The notes below the pieces were generated by a model that saw only the letters and a list, made by a program, of their open reading frames with translations, had not been told where the DNA came from and did not search any database. Positions 13,649 to 40,335 of a stretch of DNA of 64,000 bases are shown one piece after another; the stretch's first letter is position 1; every line of letters begins with the position of its first letter. The translations under genes were made by a program, and so were the position numbers. Origin of the DNA: Acetobacteraceae bacterium (lineage in GTDB: Bacteria > Pseudomonadota > Alphaproteobacteria > Acetobacterales > Acetobacteraceae); NCBI GenBank assembly GCA_027451405.1, contig DAIDJM010000024.1, positions 1,411-65,410 of the forward strand, in the 5' to 3' direction.

Positions 13649-13785
13649 AAAAAAGAACCAAAAAACTTTTCTCTGTTGGCGCCGTGCCGGCAGCGCCGGT
13701 TTTCGCATGTGACGAGGCGGTGCGGGGTCCGGTGAAAAGCGAAAAGTCTTTTTGCTTCTTTTTCTTCAGAAAAAGAAGATTCTTT
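13637..13785 (+). repeat. ATR-C copy C1 (AT-rich composite hairpin element)
   Basis: Parts in order: hairpin A GTTCTTTTTT-GA-AAAAAAGAAC (its loop holds the ribF stop), CAAAAAACTTTTC, a GC-rich variable core, GAAAAGTCTTTTTG, then hairpin B CTTCTTTTTCTTCAGAAAAAGAAG. Confidence 0.85.
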
Positions 13786-13799
13786 TCTGGAAGTTTTCG

Positions 13800-24743: not shown

Positions 24744-24887
24744 GGAAAAGGTCTTCTTTTTCTGAAGAAAAAGAAGCAAAAAGACTTTTTTTCTTTGGGA
24801 CTGTGGAGGTTGAAGCGCACGTCCGATGCGTCAACCACCTCGTTCAGGTGAAAAGTTTTTTTGGTTCTTTTTTTTCAAAAAAAGAAC
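24744..24887 (-). repeat. ATR-C copy C2 (reverse orientation)
   Basis: Its reverse complement has the same layout as C1 and C3: hairpin A, CAAAAAAACTTTTC, a different GC-rich core, AAGTCTTTTTG, hairpin B. It starts 11 nt after the typA stop. Confidence 0.85.
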
Positions 24888-24898
24888 ATCTCTTTTCC

Positions 24899-27041: not shown

Positions 27042-28382
27042 TCAGAGTCGGGCGGCCAGGCTGCGTTCAGCGGCTTGCTTGATCTTGGCAGCGGCGCGCA
27101 ATCCTGGCCGGATCAGGAGCGCGGCCTGCGCATGATCCCGCGCCATGGAGAATTTTCCGTCTTCGAAAAAAAGCTTTGCGAGCTGCAATTTTGCTTCGAT
27201 CTTGTTGGGATCCAGCCTGATCGCCCGTTCCAGCGCTGACCGCATGCCGTCGCGGTCGCCGGCACGTTTGTGAGCGCGGAACAGCGTCATCTGATGCCAA
27301 AATTCCCGGCTAACGTGCGCAGCGGTGGCGTGAAGCACGAGGGTGAGTGCATTCTCGAACAGCGTCTCCGGCGTGGGCCTGGTCTCCGTCTCGGGGAAGT
27401 TCGAGAAATCGGTGCTGAACAGGGTCGCCCGTTGCGGAAAATAGGCGCGCCGGACGGCCTCATTCGTTTCCGCGAAGTGCTCAATGAAGTTGCGCGCCTC
27501 GTCGCGGGTGGGACGCCAGCCCCGGCCAGGCAGCACTTGCGTGACCCAATCGCAGAGTATGCGCCACTGGGCGTCGGGTTCGGAATCGGCATCTGGCTGC
27601 GCGGCCCGGCGCTTCAGGGCGGCCAGCAAAATGGCCTGTCCTTCGAGGTTTATGCTGAGATTCCGTTCGCGCAAGCCAGGCGTTTCCGGAGCCGGAACAT
27701 CGATCCCGGCGGCTTGCAGGAAATCGGTGACGACGTCGCCTCCGGCGGCGGCCAGCGCATCGCGGGCGAAGATTCGGGGGCGGATCGAGCGGGCACCGAA
27801 TGCGGCCGCAAAACGGTGCAGCAGGGCTTTGTAGTTGAGGTAGCGACGCCGCTGGTTGCCGTCGGCACCTTCACGGAACAGGGCCGGCTCGACCGCGACG
27901 CCGTTACGCAGATATTGATTGTAGGCGCTGGCGACATGCTCATCCTGACGCCGCAGGTAGACGATCACGCGGGCGGAGTCGAAATAGGGCATGAGAAAAT
28001 CGGCTAGCGCCTGAACCTGCCGTCTGCGCGGCAATACGCTGAAATGTTCGCTCGTGATAATGCAGCGCGTGGTTCCCGATGGCATGGAGTCGAGTTCGGC
28101 TTTGAAGGAGTCGCGAAACGAACCGAGCCGCGTGGAAAGACCGGAGCCGCTCGCGCCGGCAGCACCGGCGAAGACGGCAGCCAGCGGGTGATGGTCGATC
28201 CGGCCGAGCGGCATGGGATAGAACACCTGCCTGGCCGCGAGCTGGTCGCGAAGCTGAGCCACGCTGTGCTGGATCGAGGTCGAACCGGTCTTGGTGACGC
28301 CGATATGCAGAATGAGTTCGCGTGCCAAAGCCTGCTCCGTGGGGTTTGCTGCGGGCAAAGCGCGGGTCGCTCGCAGCGGCAC
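27042..28382 (-). CDS. Sulfotransferase-fold-like P-loop protein with C-terminal TPR-like helices
   Basis: LILHIGVTKTGSTSIQHSV resembles a 5'-PSB PAPS-binding motif. The C-terminus RSALERAIRLDPNKIEAKLQLAKLFFEDGKFSMARDHAQAALLIRP looks TPR-like. A spot count gives ~60% GC. Confidence 0.5.
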   Translation of the reverse strand: MPLRATRALPAANPTEQALARELILHIGVTKTGSTSIQHSVAQLRDQLAARQVFYPMPLGRIDHHPLAAVFAGAAGASGSGLSTRLGSFRDSFKAELDSMPSGTTRCIITSEHFSVLPRRRQVQALADFLMPYFDSARVIVYLRRQDEHVASAYNQYLRNGVAVEPALFREGADGNQRRRYLNYKALLHRFAAAFGARSIRPRIFARDALAAAGGDVVTDFLQAAGIDVPAPETPGLRERNLSINLEGQAILLAALKRRAAQPDADSEPDAQWRILCDWVTQVLPGRGWRPTRDEARNFIEHFAETNEAVRRAYFPQRATLFSTDFSNFPETETRPTPETLFENALTLVLHATAAHVSREFWHQMTLFRAHKRAGDRDGMRSALERAIRLDPNKIEAKLQLAKLFFEDGKFSMARDHAQAALLIRPGLRAAAKIKQAAERSLAARL

Positions 28383-28565
28383 GCCCGAAGTCCCGACGGT
28401 GACCAGGCTGTTCGAGGCCGACAGCTACCCTAGCAGTCCCGGCGGGGATGAGAAAGGAATGAGGAAGGCTCTCAACCATGGGTGCGGGGTGGCGGCCGGG
28501 GTTGGCGAAACCGTTTGGGCTGTCTAGACAGGCGGCGTGGACCGACCCGTGCGGGACTGGATCGC

Positions 28566-29696
28566 GTGACCCAAAAAGCCCAGCATTTTCTCGATGAGCA
28601 GGCGCCGCAGACCCCCTGTCTGGTGGTCGATCTCGATCGGGTGGAAGAGAATTTCCGGACGGCTCGCGCGGCCTTTCCGGAGGCGCGGATCTTCTATGCG
28701 TTGAAGGCCAATCCGGCGGCGCCGATTCTGCGGCGGCTGGTGGGGCTGGGCAGCCATTTCGATGCGGCGAGCGTCGAGGAGATCGAGTTTTGCCTGGCGG
28801 CGGGGGCGGCGCCGGAGCGGATTTCGTTTGGCAATACGATCAAGAAGGCTACCGCGATCCGGCGGGCGTTCGAGGCGGGGATCCGGCTTTTCGTGTTCGA
28901 TTGCGAAGCCGAACTGGAAAAGATCGCCGAGCATGCGCCGGGGGCGCGGGTGTTCTGCCGCCTCGGGGTGGGCACCGATGGGGCGGTGTTTCCGCTGGCG
29001 CGGAAATTCGGCTGCGATCCGGCGCATGCGGCCGAATTGCTGGTGCGGGCGGCCGAACTCGGGCTCGAACCCTATGGGGTGTCGTTCCATGCTGGGAGCC
29101 AGCAGACCAGCACCGAGGCGCACGAGGCGGCGATCGGGCAGGCGGCGATGCTGTTCGACGATCTCGAACGCGCCGGCATCTCGCTCCGGATGATCAATCT
29201 CGGGGGCGGGTTTCCGACGCGCTATCAGGAGGATGTGCCGGATATCGGGGCGTTCGGCGAGCGGTTGCACCATGCACTGGCTTTCCATTTCGGAAACAGA
29301 ATACCGGAAATCCTGGTCGAGCCCGGGCGGTTGCTGGTGGGGGATGCGGGCATGCTTGAGAGCGAGGTCGTGCTCGTCAGCCGGCGCGGCAGGAACGATC
29401 CGGTGCGCTGGGTGTACCTCGATATCGGCCGGTTCGGCGGACTCTCGGAGACCGAAGGGGAGGCCACCAAATACCGGATCACGACGCCGCATGATGGCGG
29501 GCCGGACGGGCCGGTAATCATTGCGGGGCCGACCTGCGACAGCGCGGACACGCTTTATGAGAAGGCCGGTTACCGGATGCCGATGGCGCTCGCGGCGGGT
29601 GACCGCGTGCGGTTTCATGCGGCCGGGGCCTATGTGACGACTTACGCGACGACGGGCTTCAACGGGTTCAAGCCGCTCGCGGAATATTATATTTAG
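28566..29696 (+). CDS. Ornithine/lysine decarboxylase (alanine-racemase-fold, group IV PLP decarboxylase)
   Basis: IFYALKANPAAPILRRL (PLP-Lys), NLGGGFP and GPTCDSADTL. The GTG at 28566 gives 376 aa. The track ORF starts at 28482. Confidence 0.85.
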   Translation: MTQKAQHFLDEQAPQTPCLVVDLDRVEENFRTARAAFPEARIFYALKANPAAPILRRLVGLGSHFDAASVEEIEFCLAAGAAPERISFGNTIKKATAIRRAFEAGIRLFVFDCEAELEKIAEHAPGARVFCRLGVGTDGAVFPLARKFGCDPAHAAELLVRAAELGLEPYGVSFHAGSQQTSTEAHEAAIGQAAMLFDDLERAGISLRMINLGGGFPTRYQEDVPDIGAFGERLHHALAFHFGNRIPEILVEPGRLLVGDAGMLESEVVLVSRRGRNDPVRWVYLDIGRFGGLSETEGEATKYRITTPHDGGPDGPVIIAGPTCDSADTLYEKAGYRMPMALAAGDRVRFHAAGAYVTTYATTGFNGFKPLAEYYI

Positions 29697-29702
29697 GGGG
29701 AT

Positions 29703-29763
29703 GCCGCCGGCGGGCAGGGGCTCTGCCCCTGCACCCCGCTGGGGCCGGTAGGCCCCAGACCCC
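29703..29763 (-). repeat. REP-A copy A11 (reverse); left boundary of low-GC island 2
   Basis: GCCGCCGGCGGGCAGGGGCTCTGCCCCTGCACCCCGCTGGGGCCGGTAGGCCCCAGACCCC. Confidence 0.9.
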
Positions 29764-29764
29764 G

Positions 29765-30457
29765 CTATTTGTGGGCGACGGGGTTAGTTCCGCAATCCGA
29801 GGTCGTTGCCGCGGCCGCTCCGGAGCGGTGGCGTGAACGCGCAGATTGCTCCCAAATCGTCGTATCCGCGTCCCGTAGAGAGACTCCAGCCTTCGCAGCG
29901 GCCTCCTCAAGGAGCTGCAGCGCTCTGACGGCTGTGACAGGCCCCCCGGTTACGTCGCCAACCCATTGCCGGATCCGTATGTCCGGCTTTGTCGTGTTCG
30001 CGCCGAACAGCATCCGAAGGTATTGAAATCCTGCCAATCCAAAACCTCGTATTCTGGGAGTTTGCTGATCGTGGAATGCAGCGCTTTCGGCCCACGATTC
30101 CATGTTCCTGAGCTGAGACTCGCCGTCTCCAGTCCCACTGATTGTCAATGTCCATTTAGCCACTCCGGCAAGTGTATTGGCGCGATCTTTGTGGTTGTAA
30201 CAAAGAGTAGCGCAGACAAAGGCGTGTGGCGACTCGTATGCCGAAAGCGCAGATTCCAAGTCCGAAATCTTCCGTACTTGAGGATGATTTTTTTCAAAAC
30301 TGTTGAGCCGCGGAACCAGAAACCTGTCATAGTCGCGGTTAAGGGACAGAACGCAATCGATGACGCGAACAGCGGGCGGGCGACGCCAGGCTGGGTCTTC
30401 TGATTTCCTGGGCTTGATGTTACGGAGTGCCAGCACCAGGCGCTCTGAGTCCGTCAT
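29765..30457 (-). CDS. Orphan 230-aa protein with HhH-GPD (EndoIII-like) sequence pattern
   Basis: VIDCVLSLNRDYDRFLVPRL..., LCYNHKDRANTLAGVAKW... and IRGFGLAGFQYLRMLFGANTTKPDIRIRQWV parallel the EndoIII pattern LSAQ / YNSKA / GVGRKTANVVL...DTH. The ATG at 30457 follows GGGAGAG. Upstream track residues lie in high-GC or REP sequence. Confidence 0.45.
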   Translation of the reverse strand: MTDSERLVLALRNIKPRKSEDPAWRRPPAVRVIDCVLSLNRDYDRFLVPRLNSFEKNHPQVRKISDLESALSAYESPHAFVCATLCYNHKDRANTLAGVAKWTLTISGTGDGESQLRNMESWAESAAFHDQQTPRIRGFGLAGFQYLRMLFGANTTKPDIRIRQWVGDVTGGPVTAVRALQLLEEAAAKAGVSLRDADTTIWEQSARSRHRSGAAAATTSDCGTNPVAHK

Positions 30458-30591
30458 CCGGAATGGCTCTCCCTTGGGGGCGGCGGTGACCCCCTGTTGC
30501 AACGTACAACCGCTCTTGAGCATCCACCATCGCATTGAAGCCAGGGTATTGCCCAGGACCCTCTGTGGCCAGCGCCACGCTGCAAAGTGAT

Positions 30592-30652
30592 GGGGTCTGG
30601 GCCCTTTTGGCCCCAGTGGGGTCCAGGGGCAAAGCCCCTGGCCGCCGGAGGC
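30592..30652 (+). repeat. REP-A copy A12 (forward); right boundary of island 2
   Basis: GGGGTCTGGGCCCTTTTGGCCCCAGTGGGGTCCAGGGGCAAAGCCCCTGGCCGCCGGAGGC. Confidence 0.9.
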
Positions 30653-30660
30653 CAGGCCGA

Positions 30661-31644
30661 TCAGTTGGGGCGCAGCACGAGAATTTCTGCGCCGGTTCCG
30701 TAGCCGAAAAGATTGGCGCGGGCGGCGACGATGAGCCGGTCGATTTCCGGCACGAAGAGCGAGGTGCGGGCGCCGGATTTCGTCGCGATGCGGCCGATCG
30801 GGCGGTAGGGGGTGCGATCGGTCGCGAAGACATCGACGAAGCCTTCGCCGCAACTGACATAGAGACGTTTGCGCTTTTCGTCGGTGAAGACGTCGTCGGC
30901 GTCGCCGCACGTGTCGAGGCTGGCCCGGATGGTGCCGTCGGCGGCGTTCAGGGCGACCAGTCTGGCCGGATCGCGGAATGCGACGATGACGGTTTTGCCG
31001 CCATCGGCGAGGGCCATCGGGAAATTGCCGCGGAGGTCGGGCGTGCGCCAGGTGGTGAGGGGCTTGCGGGCGCCAGGGTCGAGCACGGCGATTTGTTGCG
31101 AGTCGGGGATGTTCACGAAAAGGCGCCGGCTTGCCGGGTCGAGCTGGAAGCCTTCCGGGTGGGCCGGGAGGGGGATTTGCGCGAGAAGCGCGCCGTTGGC
31201 CGGGTTGAGCGTGGCGATGCCGCCTTCGCCGTAGCCCACGAGAAAGGCGCCGCTTTGCGGATCGACGCGGATATCGTCGGCATCGCTGCCGAGTGGGGTG
31301 GTGGCGATCGGTGCGTCATCGCTGCCGCGGAGCAGGCGGACGGTGCCGTCGCCGCCATTGGCGATGGCGATGGTGTCGGTCCGCGGCGCGTAGCCGATGC
31401 CCTGGGGTTCGTGGAAGCCGGTGAGCCGCCGGATCAGCGTGCCGCGATGGAGGTCGATCACGTCGACGGTATCGTTGCCGAGCTCGGCGACGAGCAGCTG
31501 GCCCCGGGCCGGATCGAATGCCAGGTGATCGATCCGGCCGGTCACCTCGGGCAGCGCGATCGTCCGATCGAGGACGAGCGGCGGCGCGCCGGCCGCCAAA
31601 GCGGCGCCAAACGCCATGACCATCCAAAAGGTAGGCAAGGCCAA
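30661..31644 (-). CDS. Secreted YncE/YVTN-type beta-propeller repeat protein
   Basis: ...RIDHLAFDPARGQLLVAELGNDTVDVIDL... plus repeated blades. A TTG at 31644 after GGAGGG gives the signal-like N-terminus ALPTFWMVMAFGAALAAGA. An ATG alternative lies at 31623. Confidence 0.7.
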   Translation of the reverse strand: MALPTFWMVMAFGAALAAGAPPLVLDRTIALPEVTGRIDHLAFDPARGQLLVAELGNDTVDVIDLHRGTLIRRLTGFHEPQGIGYAPRTDTIAIANGGDGTVRLLRGSDDAPIATTPLGSDADDIRVDPQSGAFLVGYGEGGIATLNPANGALLAQIPLPAHPEGFQLDPASRRLFVNIPDSQQIAVLDPGARKPLTTWRTPDLRGNFPMALADGGKTVIVAFRDPARLVALNAADGTIRASLDTCGDADDVFTDEKRKRLYVSCGEGFVDVFATDRTPYRPIGRIATKSGARTSLFVPEIDRLIVAARANLFGYGTGAEILVLRPN

Positions 31645-31664
31645 TCCAACCCTCCAAAGTATAC

Positions 31665-31725
31665 GGGGTCTGGGGCCTTTCGGCCCCAGCGGAGTGCAGA
31701 GGCGGAGCCTCTGCCCGCCGGAGGC
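31665..31725 (+). repeat. REP-A copy A13 (forward) in a divergent promoter region
   Basis: Identical in core to A1. Confidence 0.9.
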
Positions 31726-31732
31726 AAGACGC

Positions 31733-32596
31733 ATGATTGATCTCGTCCTGGAAAGCCACCGCAAAAACCTGGGCGGTTTCGAAGTGGGCCGCGTGCTGCC
31801 CGCCGCGCCGCGGCGGATGGTCGGGCCGTTCGTGTTTTTCGACCATATGGGGCCGGCGGATTTTCCGGCGGGGATTCCGAAAAGCGTCGATGTGCGGCCG
31901 CATCCGCATATCGGGCTTGCGACGGTGACCTATTTGTTCGAGGGCGAGATCATGCACCGGGACAGTCTCGGCACGGTGCAGGCGATCCGTGCGGGCGAGG
32001 TGAACTGGATGACGGCCGGGCGCGGCATTACGCACTCCGAACGGTTCGAGCGGGCGCGGCTGCAGGGCGACCGGCTGCACGGGATTCAGTCCTGGGTGGC
32101 GTTGCCGGAGGGGGAGGAGGAGACGGCGCCGGATTTCTCCCATCATGCGATGGAAGATTTGCCCGAGATCGAGGGGCCGGGGGTGGTGGCGCGGCTGGTG
32201 GCGGGGAGCGCGTTCGGGATGACGGCGCCGGCACGGGTTTTCTCGCCGATGGTTTATATTCATTGGGCGTTGCGGGCGGGGGCGCGGGCGGAGGTGCCGA
32301 CCGGGCACGCGGAGCGCGCGGCTTATGTCGCGTCGGGGGAGATCGAGGCGGAGCATCGAACGTTCGGCAGCGGGACGATGCTGGTGTTCGCGCCCGGGTC
32401 GGCGCCGGTATTGCGGGCTTTGCAGGATTCGGCGGTGATGGTGCTGGGGGGTGAGAAGCTGGGGCCGCGCTATGTCGAGTGGAACTTTGTTTCGTCCTCG
32501 CGCGAGCGGATCGCGCAGGCGCGCGCGGATTGGCGGGCGGGGCGGATGCGGCTGCCCCAGGCGGACGACCAGGAGTTCATTCCGCTGCCGGAGTAG
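31733..32596 (+). CDS. Pirin-family protein
   Basis: RPHPHIGLATVTYLFEGEIMHRDSLG and NWMTAGRGITHSE. ATG at 31733; the track extension lies in A13. Confidence 0.9.
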   Translation: MIDLVLESHRKNLGGFEVGRVLPAAPRRMVGPFVFFDHMGPADFPAGIPKSVDVRPHPHIGLATVTYLFEGEIMHRDSLGTVQAIRAGEVNWMTAGRGITHSERFERARLQGDRLHGIQSWVALPEGEEETAPDFSHHAMEDLPEIEGPGVVARLVAGSAFGMTAPARVFSPMVYIHWALRAGARAEVPTGHAERAAYVASGEIEAEHRTFGSGTMLVFAPGSAPVLRALQDSAVMVLGGEKLGPRYVEWNFVSSSRERIAQARADWRAGRMRLPQADDQEFIPLPE

Positions 32597-34788
32597 AGGG
32601 TGGCGAGGGCGAGGCCGAGCGCGCCGGCGGCGGCGGCGAGCCAGGCCCAGAGCGCGCCTGGTGGGGCGTAGGCGAAAGCGATGTGCGATCGGCCGGCGGG
32701 CAGGTCGAGGGTCTGGAACAGGTCTTGCGTGCCGAGCGGGGTGGGTTGGCCGTTGATGCGGGCGGTCCAGCCGGGCCAGGCGAGTTCGCGGCGGATGAGT
32801 GTCGCGGGTTGTGGGCAATCGGTGACGATGTCGGTGCGGGAGCCGGCGATGTGGCAGCCGGGCGCGGTCCAGTAGGGTGCCGGATCGGGCAGTTGCCAGA
32901 TCGACATGACGCTGTCGCTGAAGACGAGCGGGAGCGCGATCGACGGCATTATGCCGGGATAAGTCAGGATATAGCGGACGCCGGCGTCGCGCAGCGCGGG
33001 CGCGATGCGGGGCAGGGTCGCGAGATCGCGGGTGGCGAATTGGAAATTGATGCCGTCGCTGCGGGGCATGAAACGCGCATGCACCGCATCGACCCAGTTT
33101 TGCGGCAGGGGCAGATAATTGTGATTGATCTCCGGCACGCCGAACATGGCGCCGTAATTGGCCCAGAACGGGCTGAAGGTGGCGATCCGGGAAAGGCCGG
33201 TGTGGGCTTGCAGGAAGCGGATCGCCTCGGTGTCGACGCGGGCGCCGTGCGGGCCGGCGAGAAGCGCGATCATCGGAATGGCCAGCGCCTGGGCACCGAG
33301 CGCGGCGACGAGCGAAGCTGTGCGGGGTGGAGCCGCGGGGCGCCGGGTGAGAAGATACGCGGCAAGAACAAGTCCCAGGGATAGCAGGATCGAGCCGGCG
33401 GCGAGCGCGTGGGGGGCGGCTGCGATTTGCGGCGCGGACCAGACCAGGGACAGGGCGGCGAGCGGGGCCAGGAAAAGAAGCGGGATGGTCCAGTTTGGGC
33501 GGACGCCTTCCCGCCAGTCCTGAAGCGTGAGGGAAGTCAGAATGGCGGCGGCCATCGACCAGCTCGGCATCATGTAGAGATGGATTGCGGCCTCGTGGAG
33601 CAGCGGGAGGTGCGCGAACAACGCGGTCGTGGGCGGGAAACGTACGGCGCGACTGCCTGTGAGCAGAATCCAGCCGAACAAGGTCCAGCGCAGGGCATTG
33701 TCGGGGCCGCGGCGCCGCAGCGCGGCGAGCGCCAGACAGGCCGGGAGCAGCGGGACCGTGCCGCCGAGCCGATACCAAGCGGCCGAACCATCTATGTGCT
33801 GGAGGTGGGTCGCGAGCAGGCCGCCCTGACTGTAGGGAAAGAGCATCAGGCCGGCGACGCCGGCCCGCCAGCCACCGCCCACGAGGCTGCCGTGCCATCC
33901 CAGGAATTCGCGGGGCAGGGCCTCGAGGAAGGACCAGATGGCGGGGGCGGCGAGCAGCAGGCCGCAGAGCGTGGCGGCGCCGGCACGCCAGGCATAGGCC
34001 AGGCGGGCGCCCCGGGCCTGCCATAGGCGGAGCGTGGCCCAGAGTCCGGCGAAGGCGAGGTCGAGCGCCGCGGTTTCGGGGAAGCCGGCGAGGAAGGTCC
34101 AGGCGGTGCCGAGGATCAGCGCGGGCGGGACGGTTCGCCAAACGGATGGGGTCTGGGGCCTTCCGGCCCCAGTGGGGTCCAGGGGCAAAGCCCCTGGCCG
34201 CCGGAGGCGCGGGGGGGCCCGCTCCGGGTCGCGGGCCTGTTCGAGGCCGAGCAGCATGAGCGGCAGGAAGGCGACCGGCAGGATCGGGCCGTGGGCGAAC
34301 CAGGCGAAGGTGCCGTTCAGCTCGAACAGGATGGCGCCGGCGAGCGCCGGGGCGCGGGCGAGGCCGAGGCGGCGCAGCAGGGCCAGTGTGAAGAAGCCGG
34401 CCAGCGCCATCAGGATCATGCGCAGCAGCAGCAGGCCGTGCGGCAGCGCCAGCAGCAGACCGAAGGGGAGGAAGAAGGCGGTGGTCTGGCCTTCGGCGGC
34501 GAGCGGCAGGCCGATACCGGAATAGGGGTTCCACCAGGGGACGATGCCGGAGAGCCAGTCGCGGGCGGCGAGCGCGCCGAGCGCTTCGGTGGTGACGCCG
34601 GCATTGCCGTCGATCCAGGGCAGGCCGGCGAGGAGGCCCGGGCTGCCGGGCGTGACGAGGCCGGAGACGGAATAGATCGGGTCGAAACGGAACATTCCGC
34701 TGAGCGCCGGCAGGTGGGCGGCGACCGGCAGGAGGGCCAGCAGCAGCCAGACGGGGGCGTCTTGGCGCCAGGATCGGCCCGAACTCAT
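32470..34788 (-). CDS. Large polytopic membrane protein (YfhO/GT-C-like, putative) carrying an in-frame REP-A copy
   Basis: ATG at 34788: MSSGRSWRQDAPVWLLLALLPVAAHL..., then ...VPWWNPYSGIGLPLAAEGQTTAFF... and many hydrophobic segments. REP-A copy A14 is translated as ...PPRLRRPGALPLDPTGAGRPQTPS... The 3' end overlaps the pirin gene by 127 nt. Confidence 0.65.
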   Translation of the reverse strand: MSSGRSWRQDAPVWLLLALLPVAAHLPALSGMFRFDPIYSVSGLVTPGSPGLLAGLPWIDGNAGVTTEALGALAARDWLSGIVPWWNPYSGIGLPLAAEGQTTAFFLPFGLLLALPHGLLLLRMILMALAGFFTLALLRRLGLARAPALAGAILFELNGTFAWFAHGPILPVAFLPLMLLGLEQARDPERAPPRLRRPGALPLDPTGAGRPQTPSVWRTVPPALILGTAWTFLAGFPETAALDLAFAGLWATLRLWQARGARLAYAWRAGAATLCGLLLAAPAIWSFLEALPREFLGWHGSLVGGGWRAGVAGLMLFPYSQGGLLATHLQHIDGSAAWYRLGGTVPLLPACLALAALRRRGPDNALRWTLFGWILLTGSRAVRFPPTTALFAHLPLLHEAAIHLYMMPSWSMAAAILTSLTLQDWREGVRPNWTIPLLFLAPLAALSLVWSAPQIAAAPHALAAGSILLSLGLVLAAYLLTRRPAAPPRTASLVAALGAQALAIPMIALLAGPHGARVDTEAIRFLQAHTGLSRIATFSPFWANYGAMFGVPEINHNYLPLPQNWVDAVHARFMPRSDGINFQFATRDLATLPRIAPALRDAGVRYILTYPGIMPSIALPLVFSDSVMSIWQLPDPAPYWTAPGCHIAGSRTDIVTDCPQPATLIRRELAWPGWTARINGQPTPLGTQDLFQTLDLPAGRSHIAFAYAPPGALWAWLAAAAGALGLALATLYSGSGMNSWSSAWGSRIRPARQSARACAIRSREDETKFHST
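34148..34208 (+). repeat. REP-A copy A14 (forward on + strand) inside the membrane-protein CDS
   Basis: GGGGTCTGGGGCCTTCCGGCCCCAGTGGGGTCCAGGGGCAAAGCCCCTGGCCGCCGGAGGC. Confidence 0.9.
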
Positions 34789-34867
34789 GGCTGTATCCCC
34801 CGTGCCGGCGGCGTCCGCGCTGGACAGGGCACGGCAGCGTCGCCATACTCCATTCGCTTCACTGACC

Positions 34868-35070
34868 CCAAGCGGGAGAGCAGCGGCCGCGAGCCGCCGC
34901 CGAAGGCGCAACCGGCCCCCGGAAACGCTCAGGCAAAAGGACCGCTCGATAGGGGTCGAGGCCTCTGGAAAGCCGGCGCCGGTTTGGCGCCGCACCGAAG
35001 GAGTAAGGGCGCACCCGGGGCCAGACACATGCCCGGGCACGCTCGAATCTCTCAGGTTCACGGACAGAGG
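34868..35070 (+). promoter_or_regulatory. Tandem glycine riboswitch (two aptamers) in the gcvT leader
   Basis: Aptamer 1 reads GGGAGAG...CCGAAGGCGCAA...CTCAGGCAAAAGGACC. Aptamer 2 reads CTCTGGAAAG...CACCGAAGGAGTAAG...CTCAGGTTCACGGACAGAGG. It lies immediately upstream of gcvTHP. Confidence 0.85.
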
Positions 35071-35135
35071 GGGGTCGGCTGTCGCCGGGTGACCGGCATT
35101 CGCTGACCCGGAGCCGTTCCCTGTCCGATTCGCCA

Positions 35136-36212
35136 TTGAAACTGTCGCCGCTCGATACGCTGCACCGCCGGCTCGGCGGGCGCATGGTCGGGTTCGCGGG
35201 CTGGTCGCTGCCGGTGCAGTATGAAGGTGCGCTCGCGGAACATCGGGCGGCGCGCACGCAGGCGGCGTTGTTCGATGTCTCGCATATGGGGCAGGTGACG
35301 CTGCGCGTGACGGCCGGGGAGATCGAGACGCTCGTGCCGGGCGATATCGCGGGGCTCGCACCGGGGCGGCAGCGCTACACGCTGCTGCTGAACGAGGCCG
35401 GCGGGATCCTCGACGACGTGATGGTGGCGCATTGGCCGGACGGTTTCGTGATGATCGTCAACGCGGCGCGGGCGGCTGCCGATCTCGCGCATCTGCGGCA
35501 GGCGTTCGGCGATGCGGCGGTGGAACATGGCGAGGGGCGCGCGCTGCTCGCGCTGCAGGGGCCCGAGGCCGCTGCGGTGATGGCGCGGCATGCGCCGGCC
35601 GCGGTGGCGCTGCCGTTCCTGGGGCTGGCCGAGGTGGCGATCGCGGGTGTCGCGTGCCGGGTGAGCCGGTCGGGCTATACCGGTGAGGACGGGTTCGAGA
35701 TTGCCTGCGCGGGCGAGGGGGCGGTGGCGGTCGCGGAGGCGCTGCTGGCCGAGCCCGAGGTTTTGCCGGCCGGACTTGCGGCGCGGGATACGCTGCGGCT
35801 CGAGGCGGGACTTTGCCTCTATGGCAACGATATCGACGAGGTGACGACGCCGGTGGAGGCGGGGCTTGCCTGGACGATCGGCAAGCGGCGGCGGGCGGCG
35901 CGCGATTTTCCCGGCGCCGAGCCGATCGCGGACCAGCTCGCGCAGGGTGCGCCGCGCTGCCGCGTGGGACTCCGGCCCGAGGGACGGGCGATCGCGCGGG
36001 GCGGGGCGGCCATTGCGGCGCCGGATGGGAGCGAGGCGGGAATCGTGACCTCGGGCGGCTTCGCGCCGAGCTTGGGCGGCCCGATTGCCATGGGTTACGT
36101 TCGCCGCGACCTCGCGGTCCCCGGCACGGCGCTCGGGATCGAGGTCCGGGGGCAACGTCTGCCGGCGCAGGTGGTGGCGCTGCCCTTCGTTCCCCATCGC
36201 TTTGCCCGTTAG
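35136..36212 (+). CDS. gcvT: Glycine cleavage system aminomethyltransferase T
   Basis: FAGWSLPVQYEGALAEHRAARTQAALFDVSHMGQV and SRSGYTGEDGFEI. Confidence 0.95.
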   Translation: MKLSPLDTLHRRLGGRMVGFAGWSLPVQYEGALAEHRAARTQAALFDVSHMGQVTLRVTAGEIETLVPGDIAGLAPGRQRYTLLLNEAGGILDDVMVAHWPDGFVMIVNAARAAADLAHLRQAFGDAAVEHGEGRALLALQGPEAAAVMARHAPAAVALPFLGLAEVAIAGVACRVSRSGYTGEDGFEIACAGEGAVAVAEALLAEPEVLPAGLAARDTLRLEAGLCLYGNDIDEVTTPVEAGLAWTIGKRRRAARDFPGAEPIADQLAQGAPRCRVGLRPEGRAIARGGAAIAAPDGSEAGIVTSGGFAPSLGGPIAMGYVRRDLAVPGTALGIEVRGQRLPAQVVALPFVPHRFAR

Positions 36213-36221
36213 AGGACCGCC

Positions 36222-36595
36222 ATGGCAGAGATCCGCTATACGAAAGACCATGAATGGGTGCGCCTCGAAGAGGATGGCACGCTGACGATCGGCATCACCG
36301 ATCACGCGCAGGAGGCGCTCGGCGACATCGTGTTCGTCGAATTGCCGGCCGTGGATCGCGAGGTGGCGGAAGGCGAATCCTGCGCGACCGTGGAGAGCAC
36401 GAAGGCGGCGAACGACGTGTTCGCGCCGCTCGCCGGGCGCATCGCCGAAGTGAACGAGGCGATCGTCGAGGATCCCGGGCTGATCAATCGCGATCCGGCC
36501 GGCGAAGGCTGGTTCTGGCGCATGGAACCGGAAGACGACGCGCAGTTTGAGCAGCTCCTCGATGAGGAGAGCTACGAGGCATTCCTGGAGACTCT

Positions 36596-36599
<4 letters not shown>
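36222..36599 (+). CDS. gcvH: Glycine cleavage system H protein
   Basis: [11 protein letters not shown] and the lipoyl-Lys motif VESTKAAND. Confidence 0.95.
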
Positions 36600-39466
<2,867 letters not shown>

Positions 39467-39475
39467 GGGAAGGTT

Positions 39476-39593
39476 GTTCTTTTTTTGAAAAAAAAGAACC
39501 AAAAAAACTTTCTCGTATTTGGAAGGTGCTGGTTCCGGCCTCGATCTAATACGAGAAAAAGTCTTTTTGCTTCTTTTTCTTCAGAAAAAGAAG
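39476..39593 (+). repeat. ATR-C copy C3
   Basis: Hairpin A GTTCTTTTTTTGAAAAAAAAGAAC begins 9 nt after the gcvP stop. The core stem is CTCGTATT...AATACGAG. Hairpin B is CTTCTTTTTCTTCAGAAAAAGAAG. Confidence 0.85.
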
Positions 39594-39600
39594 AATCCTT

Positions 39601-40335
39601 TCACTTCCCTTTCAACGGCTCATCAAAAATCGCACCATCGAGCTTCGCCCCCGTGAAATCGGTTCCGGTCAGATAGGCGCCGGTGAAGTCCGCGTGCGTC
39701 AGGTTGGCGTTGCGGAAGGTGGCGTGTTCGAGGTGGGCGTAGCGGAACGTGTTGCGGCCGAGATCGGCGCCGGTGAAATCGGCGTTTTCCAGGTGGGCGC
39801 TGTCGAATTCGCTGCGGAGCAGGCCCATCGACTGGTTGGCCATGTTCACGCCGTATCGGGCACCGCGGAGATTGGCGCCGCGCATATCGTCGAAACTGTA
39901 ATGGATGGTGCCGCTGGTGTCGGAGAGGTCGGCGGCGACGAAACTGGCGGCGAGGTCGGGCTGATTTTCCATGCCGTAGGATGTGACGATGGTGGGCATC
40001 TGGGCGGCGTGGAGGTTGGCGTGGTCGAAGCGGGCGCGCATGATCCACACGCCGCGGAGATTGGCGCCGCGGAGATTGGCGCCGGTGAGGTCGGCGCCCA
40101 CGAGTTTCACGCGGTAGAGGTTGGCGCCGGCGAGGTTGGCGCGCGAGAGGTTGGCGCCGGAGAAATCGAGGCCGGTGAGGTCGGCGCCGGCGAGGTTCTG
40201 GCCGGAAAAGTCGCGGTCGCCGGTGGCGAGACGGTGGCGGACGGCGTCGCCCGTGAGCGGAGACGGGGCGGCGGCGGTCAGCAGGGCGAGGCTCAGGACC
40301 ATCCAGGGGCGGAATGTCGGGCCAGCGTTCGCCAT
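39601..40335 (-). CDS. Secreted pentapeptide-repeat protein
   Basis: MANAGPTFRPWMVLSLALLTAAAPS (signal-like), then tandem A(N/D)LxG-type pentapeptides: ANLSRANLAGANLYRVKLVGADLTGANLRGANLRG. Confidence 0.8.
   Translation of the reverse strand: MANAGPTFRPWMVLSLALLTAAAPSPLTGDAVRHRLATGDRDFSGQNLAGADLTGLDFSGANLSRANLAGANLYRVKLVGADLTGANLRGANLRGVWIMRARFDHANLHAAQMPTIVTSYGMENQPDLAASFVAADLSDTSGTIHYSFDDMRGANLRGARYGVNMANQSMGLLRSEFDSAHLENADFTGADLGRNTFRYAHLEHATFRNANLTHADFTGAYLTGTDFTGAKLDGAIFDEPLKGK

Follow-up and report, generated by a model that had tools for sequence, protein, structure and literature searches.

An in-frame copy of the REP-A repeat, probably tolerated as a loop insertion in a predicted YfhO-like GT-C glycosyltransferase

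The minus-strand gene at 32470..34788 of the DNA analyzed here (the window: a stretch of 64,000 nucleotides [nt], C24:1411-65410, from an Acetobacteraceae genome) encodes a 772-residue polytopic membrane protein, and its reading frame runs through a copy of REP-A, a short repeat dispersed across the genome. The genome examined is a 97.7% complete draft of 3.37 Mb in 67 contigs, with a GC content of 67.9%. The segment is a REP-A copy, homologous proteins lack it, the host frame is intact across it, conserved residues to either side are retained, and it falls in a loop. We regard it as likely that the insertion occurred in frame and has been tolerated as a neutral decoration of a GT-C glycosyltransferase loop: a REP-A copy would have inserted into a YfhO-like gene that is present once in the genome, the frame would have continued, and the protein would have gained ∼30 Pro/Arg/Gly-rich residues in a short loop. 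Because most REP-A copies are free of stops in six frames and the net added length is 90 nt, the frame continues; because the insert is net positive and predicted to be disordered, it should leave topology and fold as they were.

REP-A is a short, GC-rich, two-hairpin, high-copy repeat that is normally intergenic. Genome-wide, blastn finds 144 full-length copies (at least 50 nt) and a regular expression describing both hairpins finds 177 cores; the motif of hairpin 1, CTGGGGCC-N4-GGCCCCAGACCCC, occurs 218 times in the genome and not once in a backwards control. Within the window, a 28-nt piece of the core has four matches at three or fewer mismatches compared with none in 100 shuffles, and a repeat finder clusters the site at 34148-34208 with copies at 792, 2141, 10367, 30591, and 31664. 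The information content of 131 to 137 anchored copies is 1.8 to 2.0 bits per position from GCCTCCGGCGG to CAGACCCC, a span of 61 nt; outside this core it is at most 0.7 bits, with a weak 7-nt 3′ tail (consensus ATTACTT, 0.2 to 0.7 bits). Hairpin 1 is nearly invariant across copies. The stem of hairpin 2 differs on both arms by subfamily (CAGGGGC/GCCCCTG, CAGAGGC/GCCTCTG, and CAAGGGC/GCCCTTG among the genome-wide copies) and appears to be maintained, since the two arms vary together. No Rfam family covers REP-A (window 28000-38000, with three copies inside).

A stricter classification of the 177 cores assigns one to a coding interior, five to C-terminal tails, and 171 to non-coding DNA. A screen based on GC at third codon positions (GC3) likewise leaves 34148-34208 as the single blastn copy of the 144 that lies within an open reading frame (ORF) bearing a coding signature on both sides. 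All six frames are stop-free in 139 of the 177 cores, so any insertion with a length that is a multiple of three reads through. The five tail-forming cores lie at C2:89587, C2:96276, C14:17994, C17:5347, and C35:96920 (0-based positions; those of minus-strand entries refer to the reverse-complemented contig). Each is read by an ORF that has a strong coding signature upstream and ends inside or just past the core; C-terminal tails of repeat origin are thus a recurrent feature of this genome.

The copy inside the gene is complete, as the original prediction had stated: the information profile delimits the exact 61-nt core at 34148..34208 on the minus strand, and the 772-codon ORF reads through it to yield the peptide quoted there. 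From 34208 to 34148 the core reads GCCTCCGGCGG-CCAGGGGCTTTGCCCCTGG-ACCCCA-CTGGGGCCGGAAGGCCCCAG-ACCCC and encodes residues ∼194 through 214 (RLRRPGALPLDPTGAGRPQTP); it is 100% identical over 61 nt to the copy at C62:7292-7352 and >98% identical to several others. Hairpin 2 (CCAGGGGC-TTT-GCCCCTGG; 34179..34197, minus strand) and hairpin 1 (CTGGGGCC-GGAA-GGCCCCAG; 34153..34172, minus strand) are present in both the minimum free energy and the centroid RNA folds. In the orientation of the gene, the insert RNA folds into these two hairpins with two 8-bp GC stems (−63.1 kcal/mol, z = −2.35), and an intrinsic terminator search finds no terminator-like site at the element in that orientation. A further 7-bp stem, joining the Q-A-R codons with the new E-R-A codons, is likely a chance pairing in GC-rich sequence. 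A few blastn matches reach the weak 3′ tail (ATCCGTTT; 34140..34147, minus strand), whose codons end in A or T (GTT, CGA) compared with a GC3 of 0.91 to 0.96 in the host gene; the recognizable element measures 61 nt, or ∼72 nt with this tail (34140-34211). At the protein level, insert residues 190 through 218 match ∼17 other sites in the genome, all of them translated REP-A copies. The copy near 30600, noted earlier as giving nearly the same peptide, does so in one frame (GLRRPGALPLDPTGAKRAQTPS).

Homologues of the host protein lack the segment. A search of a 5.8-billion-protein collection gave 150 homologues (best identity 57%), mostly from metagenome-assembled genomes of Acetobacteraceae, Bryobacteraceae, and Acidimicrobiia, and the host protein was aligned with 22 homologues of 46 to 58% identity. 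Alone among the 23 aligned sequences, it carries ∼30 extra residues (about 190 through 219, RAPPRLRRPGALPLDPTGAGRPQTPSVWRT; 90 nt, 34132..34221, minus strand), delimited by the alignment, tblastn gaps, and the coil of the AlphaFold model, with edges uncertain by two to three residues. The insert falls between invariant E183 and G227 and is flanked by the conserved blocks ...LPL.LLG.EQAR and ...LGTAW.F.AGFPETA; tblastn against the closest genome loci leaves a gap of 30 to 31 residues at the same place. Three family genomes (G023, G020, and G001, the last from the same genus) encode homologues that likewise lack the segment. Because homologues are without it and the insert matches other REP-A copies, the segment is repeat-derived and not ancestral, in agreement with the original prediction. 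An indel lying exactly at the repeat had also been anticipated; the position holds, with the peptide in no homologue, but the size does not, as the insert is 90 nt and the element 61 to 72 nt, which leaves 18 to 29 nt without a traced source. Possibly the loop was already longer in this lineage, as it is in G001, and then gained a 72-nt (24-codon) element. The G001 loop is ∼6 to 7 residues longer and unrelated in sequence to the insert, so the length of this loop is not fixed. The G001 homologue (L004 / L018, G001:C21:19551-21663) is itself split across two frames near residue 362, representing either a frameshifted gene or a sequencing error; it adjoins rho, not gcvT and pirin, and is not syntenic with the host gene.

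The host gene has the properties of an intact coding sequence on both sides of the insert. Its ORF is open for 772 codons through the REP-A core, with no stop or frameshift, and its start at 34788 matches the N termini of aligned homologues. Upstream, GC at codon positions 1/2/3 amounts to 0.78/0.46/0.96; downstream, it is 0.74/0.63/0.91. Where the other 22 sequences share an invariant residue, the host protein keeps it in 52/52 columns before the insert and in 59/63 after it; the four misses are unremarkable because, in a leave-one-out comparison, other members miss 0 to 9 such columns. The genome contains no other paralogue of the gene. The full-length protein with its insert is presumably made and active. 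The predicted tryptic peptide spanning the insert is RPGALPLDPTGAGRPQTPSVWR; trypsin seldom cleaves before Pro.

The fold-level comparison identifies the host protein as a distant YfhO-like GT-C glycosyltransferase, with ∼13 to 15 predicted transmembrane (TM) helices and a periplasmic domain at ∼511 through 711. The Pfam family YfhO (PF09586) scores 26.4 bits for the host protein against a curated cut-off of 28.5, and all 23 aligned sequences match it at E ≤ 0.01 (best 5.8e-10), many of them with a precomputed PF09586 assignment; NCBIfam and a sequence-profile search of the PDB give no match for the host protein. An AlphaFold2 model built from the alignment has a predicted TM-score (pTM) of 0.83, and the PDB structures that Foldseek ranks closest to it are without exception GT-C enzymes (AftD, ArnT, AglB, STT3, PglB, EmbB, and Pmt; probability ∼1.0, with low TM-scores). 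The earlier label of YfhO/GT-C-like is thus right at the level of fold, with the Pfam score of the protein itself just under the cut-off. Like YfhO GT-C proteins (PF09586), AftD (6W98), and ArnT (5EZM), the predicted protein has an N-terminal core of many TM helices followed by a soluble periplasmic domain and, as in GT-C enzymes, invariant acidic and His motifs in Lys/Arg-poor loops (Foldseek probability 1.0); unlike YfhO-type members, it belongs to a distant subfamily, and its own score is below the Pfam cut-off. The Lys/Arg-poor loop 30-105, which would be the first external loop, contains three acidic residues that are invariant or nearly so (D36, D60, and E99), as expected of a GT-C architecture; they may have a catalytic role.

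The insert lies between TM helices at ∼169 through 186 and ∼220 through 233. In the AlphaFold model, helices span 175 through 186 and 222 through 233, and residues 187 through 215 are coil with a block-mean predicted local distance difference test score of 45 to 61, so that the loop position proposed originally is supported. Simple hydropathy segmentation was too crude to define topology, which was instead based on the density of Lys plus Arg in successive loops across 22 homologues. From the N terminus (0.21), these densities are 0.03 (loop 30-105), 0.01 (114-118), 0.25 (138-146), 0.00 (160-168), 0.25 (184-221, the insert loop), 0.00 (234-239), 0.24 (254-263), 0.05 (291-346), 0.29 (356-364), 0.05 (382-401), 0.20 (424-434), 0.06 (451-460), 0.24 (481-488), and 0.07 (region 511-711), ending with 0.22 in the C-terminal tail; they alternate cleanly between 0.20-0.29 and 0.00-0.07. 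Under the positive-inside rule, Lys/Arg-rich loops are cytoplasmic and, being rich in these residues, the insert loop is probably cytoplasmic. In homologues this loop is short (7 to 10 residues), Lys/Arg-rich, and carries ∼2 positive charges; with the insert it comprises 38 residues including 7 Arg and 3 acidic residues, and its positive charge bias is therefore kept. The invariant polar motifs (D36, D60, E99, P116-H117-G118, H166-G167-P168, and G235-F236-P237-E238) are all in low-density loops, which would form the periplasmic face. GT-C active sites lie on the periplasmic face; the insert loop would be on the face opposite these conserved motifs.

Several observations weigh against a tolerated in-frame insertion as described, or against details of it. 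Four residues that are invariant elsewhere differ at 539 through 570 in the host protein. Within the 90-nt insert, some 18 to 29 nt have no counterpart in another REP-A copy. The flanks contain no direct repeat at the 90-nt spacing expected of a target-site duplication; the only repeats of at least 7 nt are separated by 110 and 174 nt, as is unremarkable for GC-rich DNA. The 5.8 billion proteins and the GTDB genomes yield no close relative with an empty site (best identity 57 to 58%), and a degenerate DNA pattern for the upstream peptide has no match in metagenome contigs, a collection from which near-identical records may be missing; the exact junctions and the age of the insertion therefore cannot be fixed. 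Cytoplasmic placement of the loop derives from charge bias and helix counting, not from model coordinates. Finally, an insertion has odds of ∼1 in 3 of preserving the frame, and this copy is identical to others, so a very recent inactivating insertion that has yet to decay is conceivable.

That last scenario, in which the insertion inactivated the gene and the ORF is open only through recency, a stop-free element, and a chance multiple-of-three length, seems to us rather improbable but is the strongest competitor. It draws on the 100% identity of the copy to another, such that it may be very young, on the odds of an in-frame outcome with 139 of 177 cores stop-free in all frames, on the four substitutions at 539 through 570, and on the split same-genus homologue, which indicates that the family can be lost. 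Set against these points, the insert sits in the one short loop whose length varies within the genus, where it is predicted to form coil and keeps the positive charge; retention of conserved residues is within the normal range of the family; and this is the sole interior copy among 144 to 177, a pattern that fits selection purging disruptive insertions while sparing this one. The insertion is probably recent.

The distribution of REP-A among relatives is patchy, as is typical of mobile DNA. Of 401 family genomes, 54 contain the hairpin-1 motif, which reaches high copy in only a few (187, 176, 74, and 52), with lineage-specific loop variants (GAAA, GGGA, AGTC, AGTA, and TGGA in G115, G361, G195, G107, G408, and others); it is absent from same-genus G001 and from nearly all of 40 sampled relatives, one of which has a single match. 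A search for the Y1/RAYT (REP-associated tyrosine) transposase (PF01797; REP, repetitive extragenic palindromic), which detected it in control genomes, finds no match in the 97.7%-complete genome. On inspection, no GTAG or CGTC tag lies beside any stem of the consensus GAGGCGTGCCTCCGGCGG...CAGACCCCATTACTT or of its complement, and the ends GCCTCCGGCGG and CAGACCCC are not complementary, that is, there are no terminal inverted repeats. REP-A might still be active and moved by an undescribed mechanism, or its hairpins or the new loop might have been co-opted to regulate synthesis or interactions of the enzyme; we hold this pair of possibilities to be unlikely, somewhat more so than inactivation. 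If REP-A is active, a young intragenic copy would be among the few insertions whose ancestral target can be deduced from protein homologues; if it has been co-opted, the candidates would be the two stable mRNA hairpins or the new Arg/Pro-rich cytoplasmic loop.

A misassembly that placed the repeat inside the gene is very improbable. A draft of 67 contigs with >200 repeat copies is the type of sequence that confuses assemblers, but the element of 61 to 72 nt is shorter than typical reads, both flanks are unique sequence of one gene in a 75-kb contig, and the frame and downstream conserved residues continue exactly, whereas a misjoin should disrupt the gene and not insert 90 nt in frame. The converse origin, with the segment ancestral to the protein or REP-A derived from the host gene, can be set aside almost entirely: shared sequence alone speaks for it, whereas no homologue has the segment, almost all of the 218 repeat copies are non-coding, and the segment is rich in A/T-ending triplets unlike the host gene.

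The first palindromic repeats described as inserting in frame into genes were the Rickettsia palindromic elements (RPEs) (Ogata et al. 2000, 2002, as cited in PMC10969869). As far as the account in that review extends, RPEs are ∼100 to 150 bp long and often intragenic, with nearly half of the copies within genes in some families (PMC10969869). Like RPEs, REP-A is palindromic, lies in frame in an unrelated gene, is absent from orthologues, and adds a short peptide where the fold accommodates it; unlike RPEs, it is ∼61 to 72 nt long and very GC-rich, only 1 of its ∼144 to 177 full copies is intragenic, and its host is a high-GC alphaproteobacterium of free-living type. No sequence relationship is claimed, and the parallel with RPEs that was drawn at the outset is apt as an analogy rather than as homology.

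REPs inside genes have been reported in several species, many of them encoding 20 to 30 residues of "REP-decorated proteins", and the same study notes that Acetobacteraceae lack CGTC repeats (Di Nocera et al. 2013, PMC3733652). REP-A resembles GTAG/CGTC REPs in its short GC-rich stem-loops, mostly extragenic location, occasional in-frame copy, and patchy occurrence among species; it differs in having neither tag and in a genome without a Y1/RAYT transposase, and its host is a membrane glycosyltransferase as opposed to the DNA-repair gene of the case in Di Nocera et al. 2013. Of the features that define classical RAYT-type REPs, REP-A thus lacks two (sequence tag and transposase), whereas the classical pattern of a GC-rich, high-copy stem-loop outside coding-signature ORFs (171/177 cores) is present. 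Intragenic ERIC (enterobacterial repetitive intergenic consensus), BOX, and MITE (miniature transposable element with inverted repeats) sequences also form in-frame fusions (review PMC10969869). REP-A is, like these, a small non-autonomous repeat with open frames able to extend or interrupt host ORFs; unlike MITEs, it has no terminal inverted repeats, and no target-site duplication was found in the one copy checked.

The intragenic copy combines dispersed-repeat identity, a continuous host frame, and absence from homologues, the features of the class of in-frame repeat insertions. It appears to work as RPE and REP decorations do, alike by process and not by homology, and adds a clean new case to those documented earlier as in-frame REP, RPE, and MITE decorations of 20 to 30 residues. 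It extends repeat-driven protein decoration to a high-GC alphaproteobacterium of free-living type and to a repeat family that lacks both the customary sequence tags and the customary transposase. As a natural experiment, a disordered, positively charged insert of 30 residues has apparently been tolerated in a probably cytoplasmic GT-C loop, which would mark this loop as permissive, for example for tags. REP-A also calls for caution in annotation, as it gives rise here to spurious N-terminal extensions and to C-terminal tails, whether real or spurious. One such case is the pirin-like ORF listed with 326 residues: it begins upstream of the REP-A copy at 31664-31737 and reads through it (window 31616-31737, plus strand; …GLGPFGPSGVQRRSLCPPEA…). 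The true start is probably the Met of MIDLVLESH, and the N-terminal extension is likely spurious.

At its 3′ end the membrane-protein ORF shares 127 nt (32470-32596) with the convergent pirin-like ORF. With tblastn, host residues ∼730 through 772 match many other genomes; the simplest explanation is that these matches are antisense to the conserved pirin C terminus. Beyond its last TM helix the host protein extends for 38 residues, compared with a mean of 19 (range 2 to 52) in homologues. On the other side of the gene, two tandem glycine riboswitch aptamers (34863-35077, plus strand; 57.7 and 53.1 bits) immediately precede a gcvT-like ORF (35136-36212) and face away from the membrane-protein gene, a standard arrangement. 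The window also contains an AT-rich palindromic 46-nt repeat (AAAAGTCTTTTTGCTTCTTTTTCTTCAGAAAAAGAAG...) at 13742-13787, 24851-24896, and 39557-39602, in a genome of 68% GC. Several homologues from other genomes have Lys/Phe-rich peptides at their termini (SSFLKKRTKKLL, FFFEKKKQKTF, and FFFSKKNILP); these fit a translated AT-rich repeat, and a similar repeat may therefore be read at gene ends there. An extended series of repeats with 15-nt periodicity on the minus strand at 39640-40222 (repeat finder family D1) fits a gene for a pentapeptide-repeat protein.

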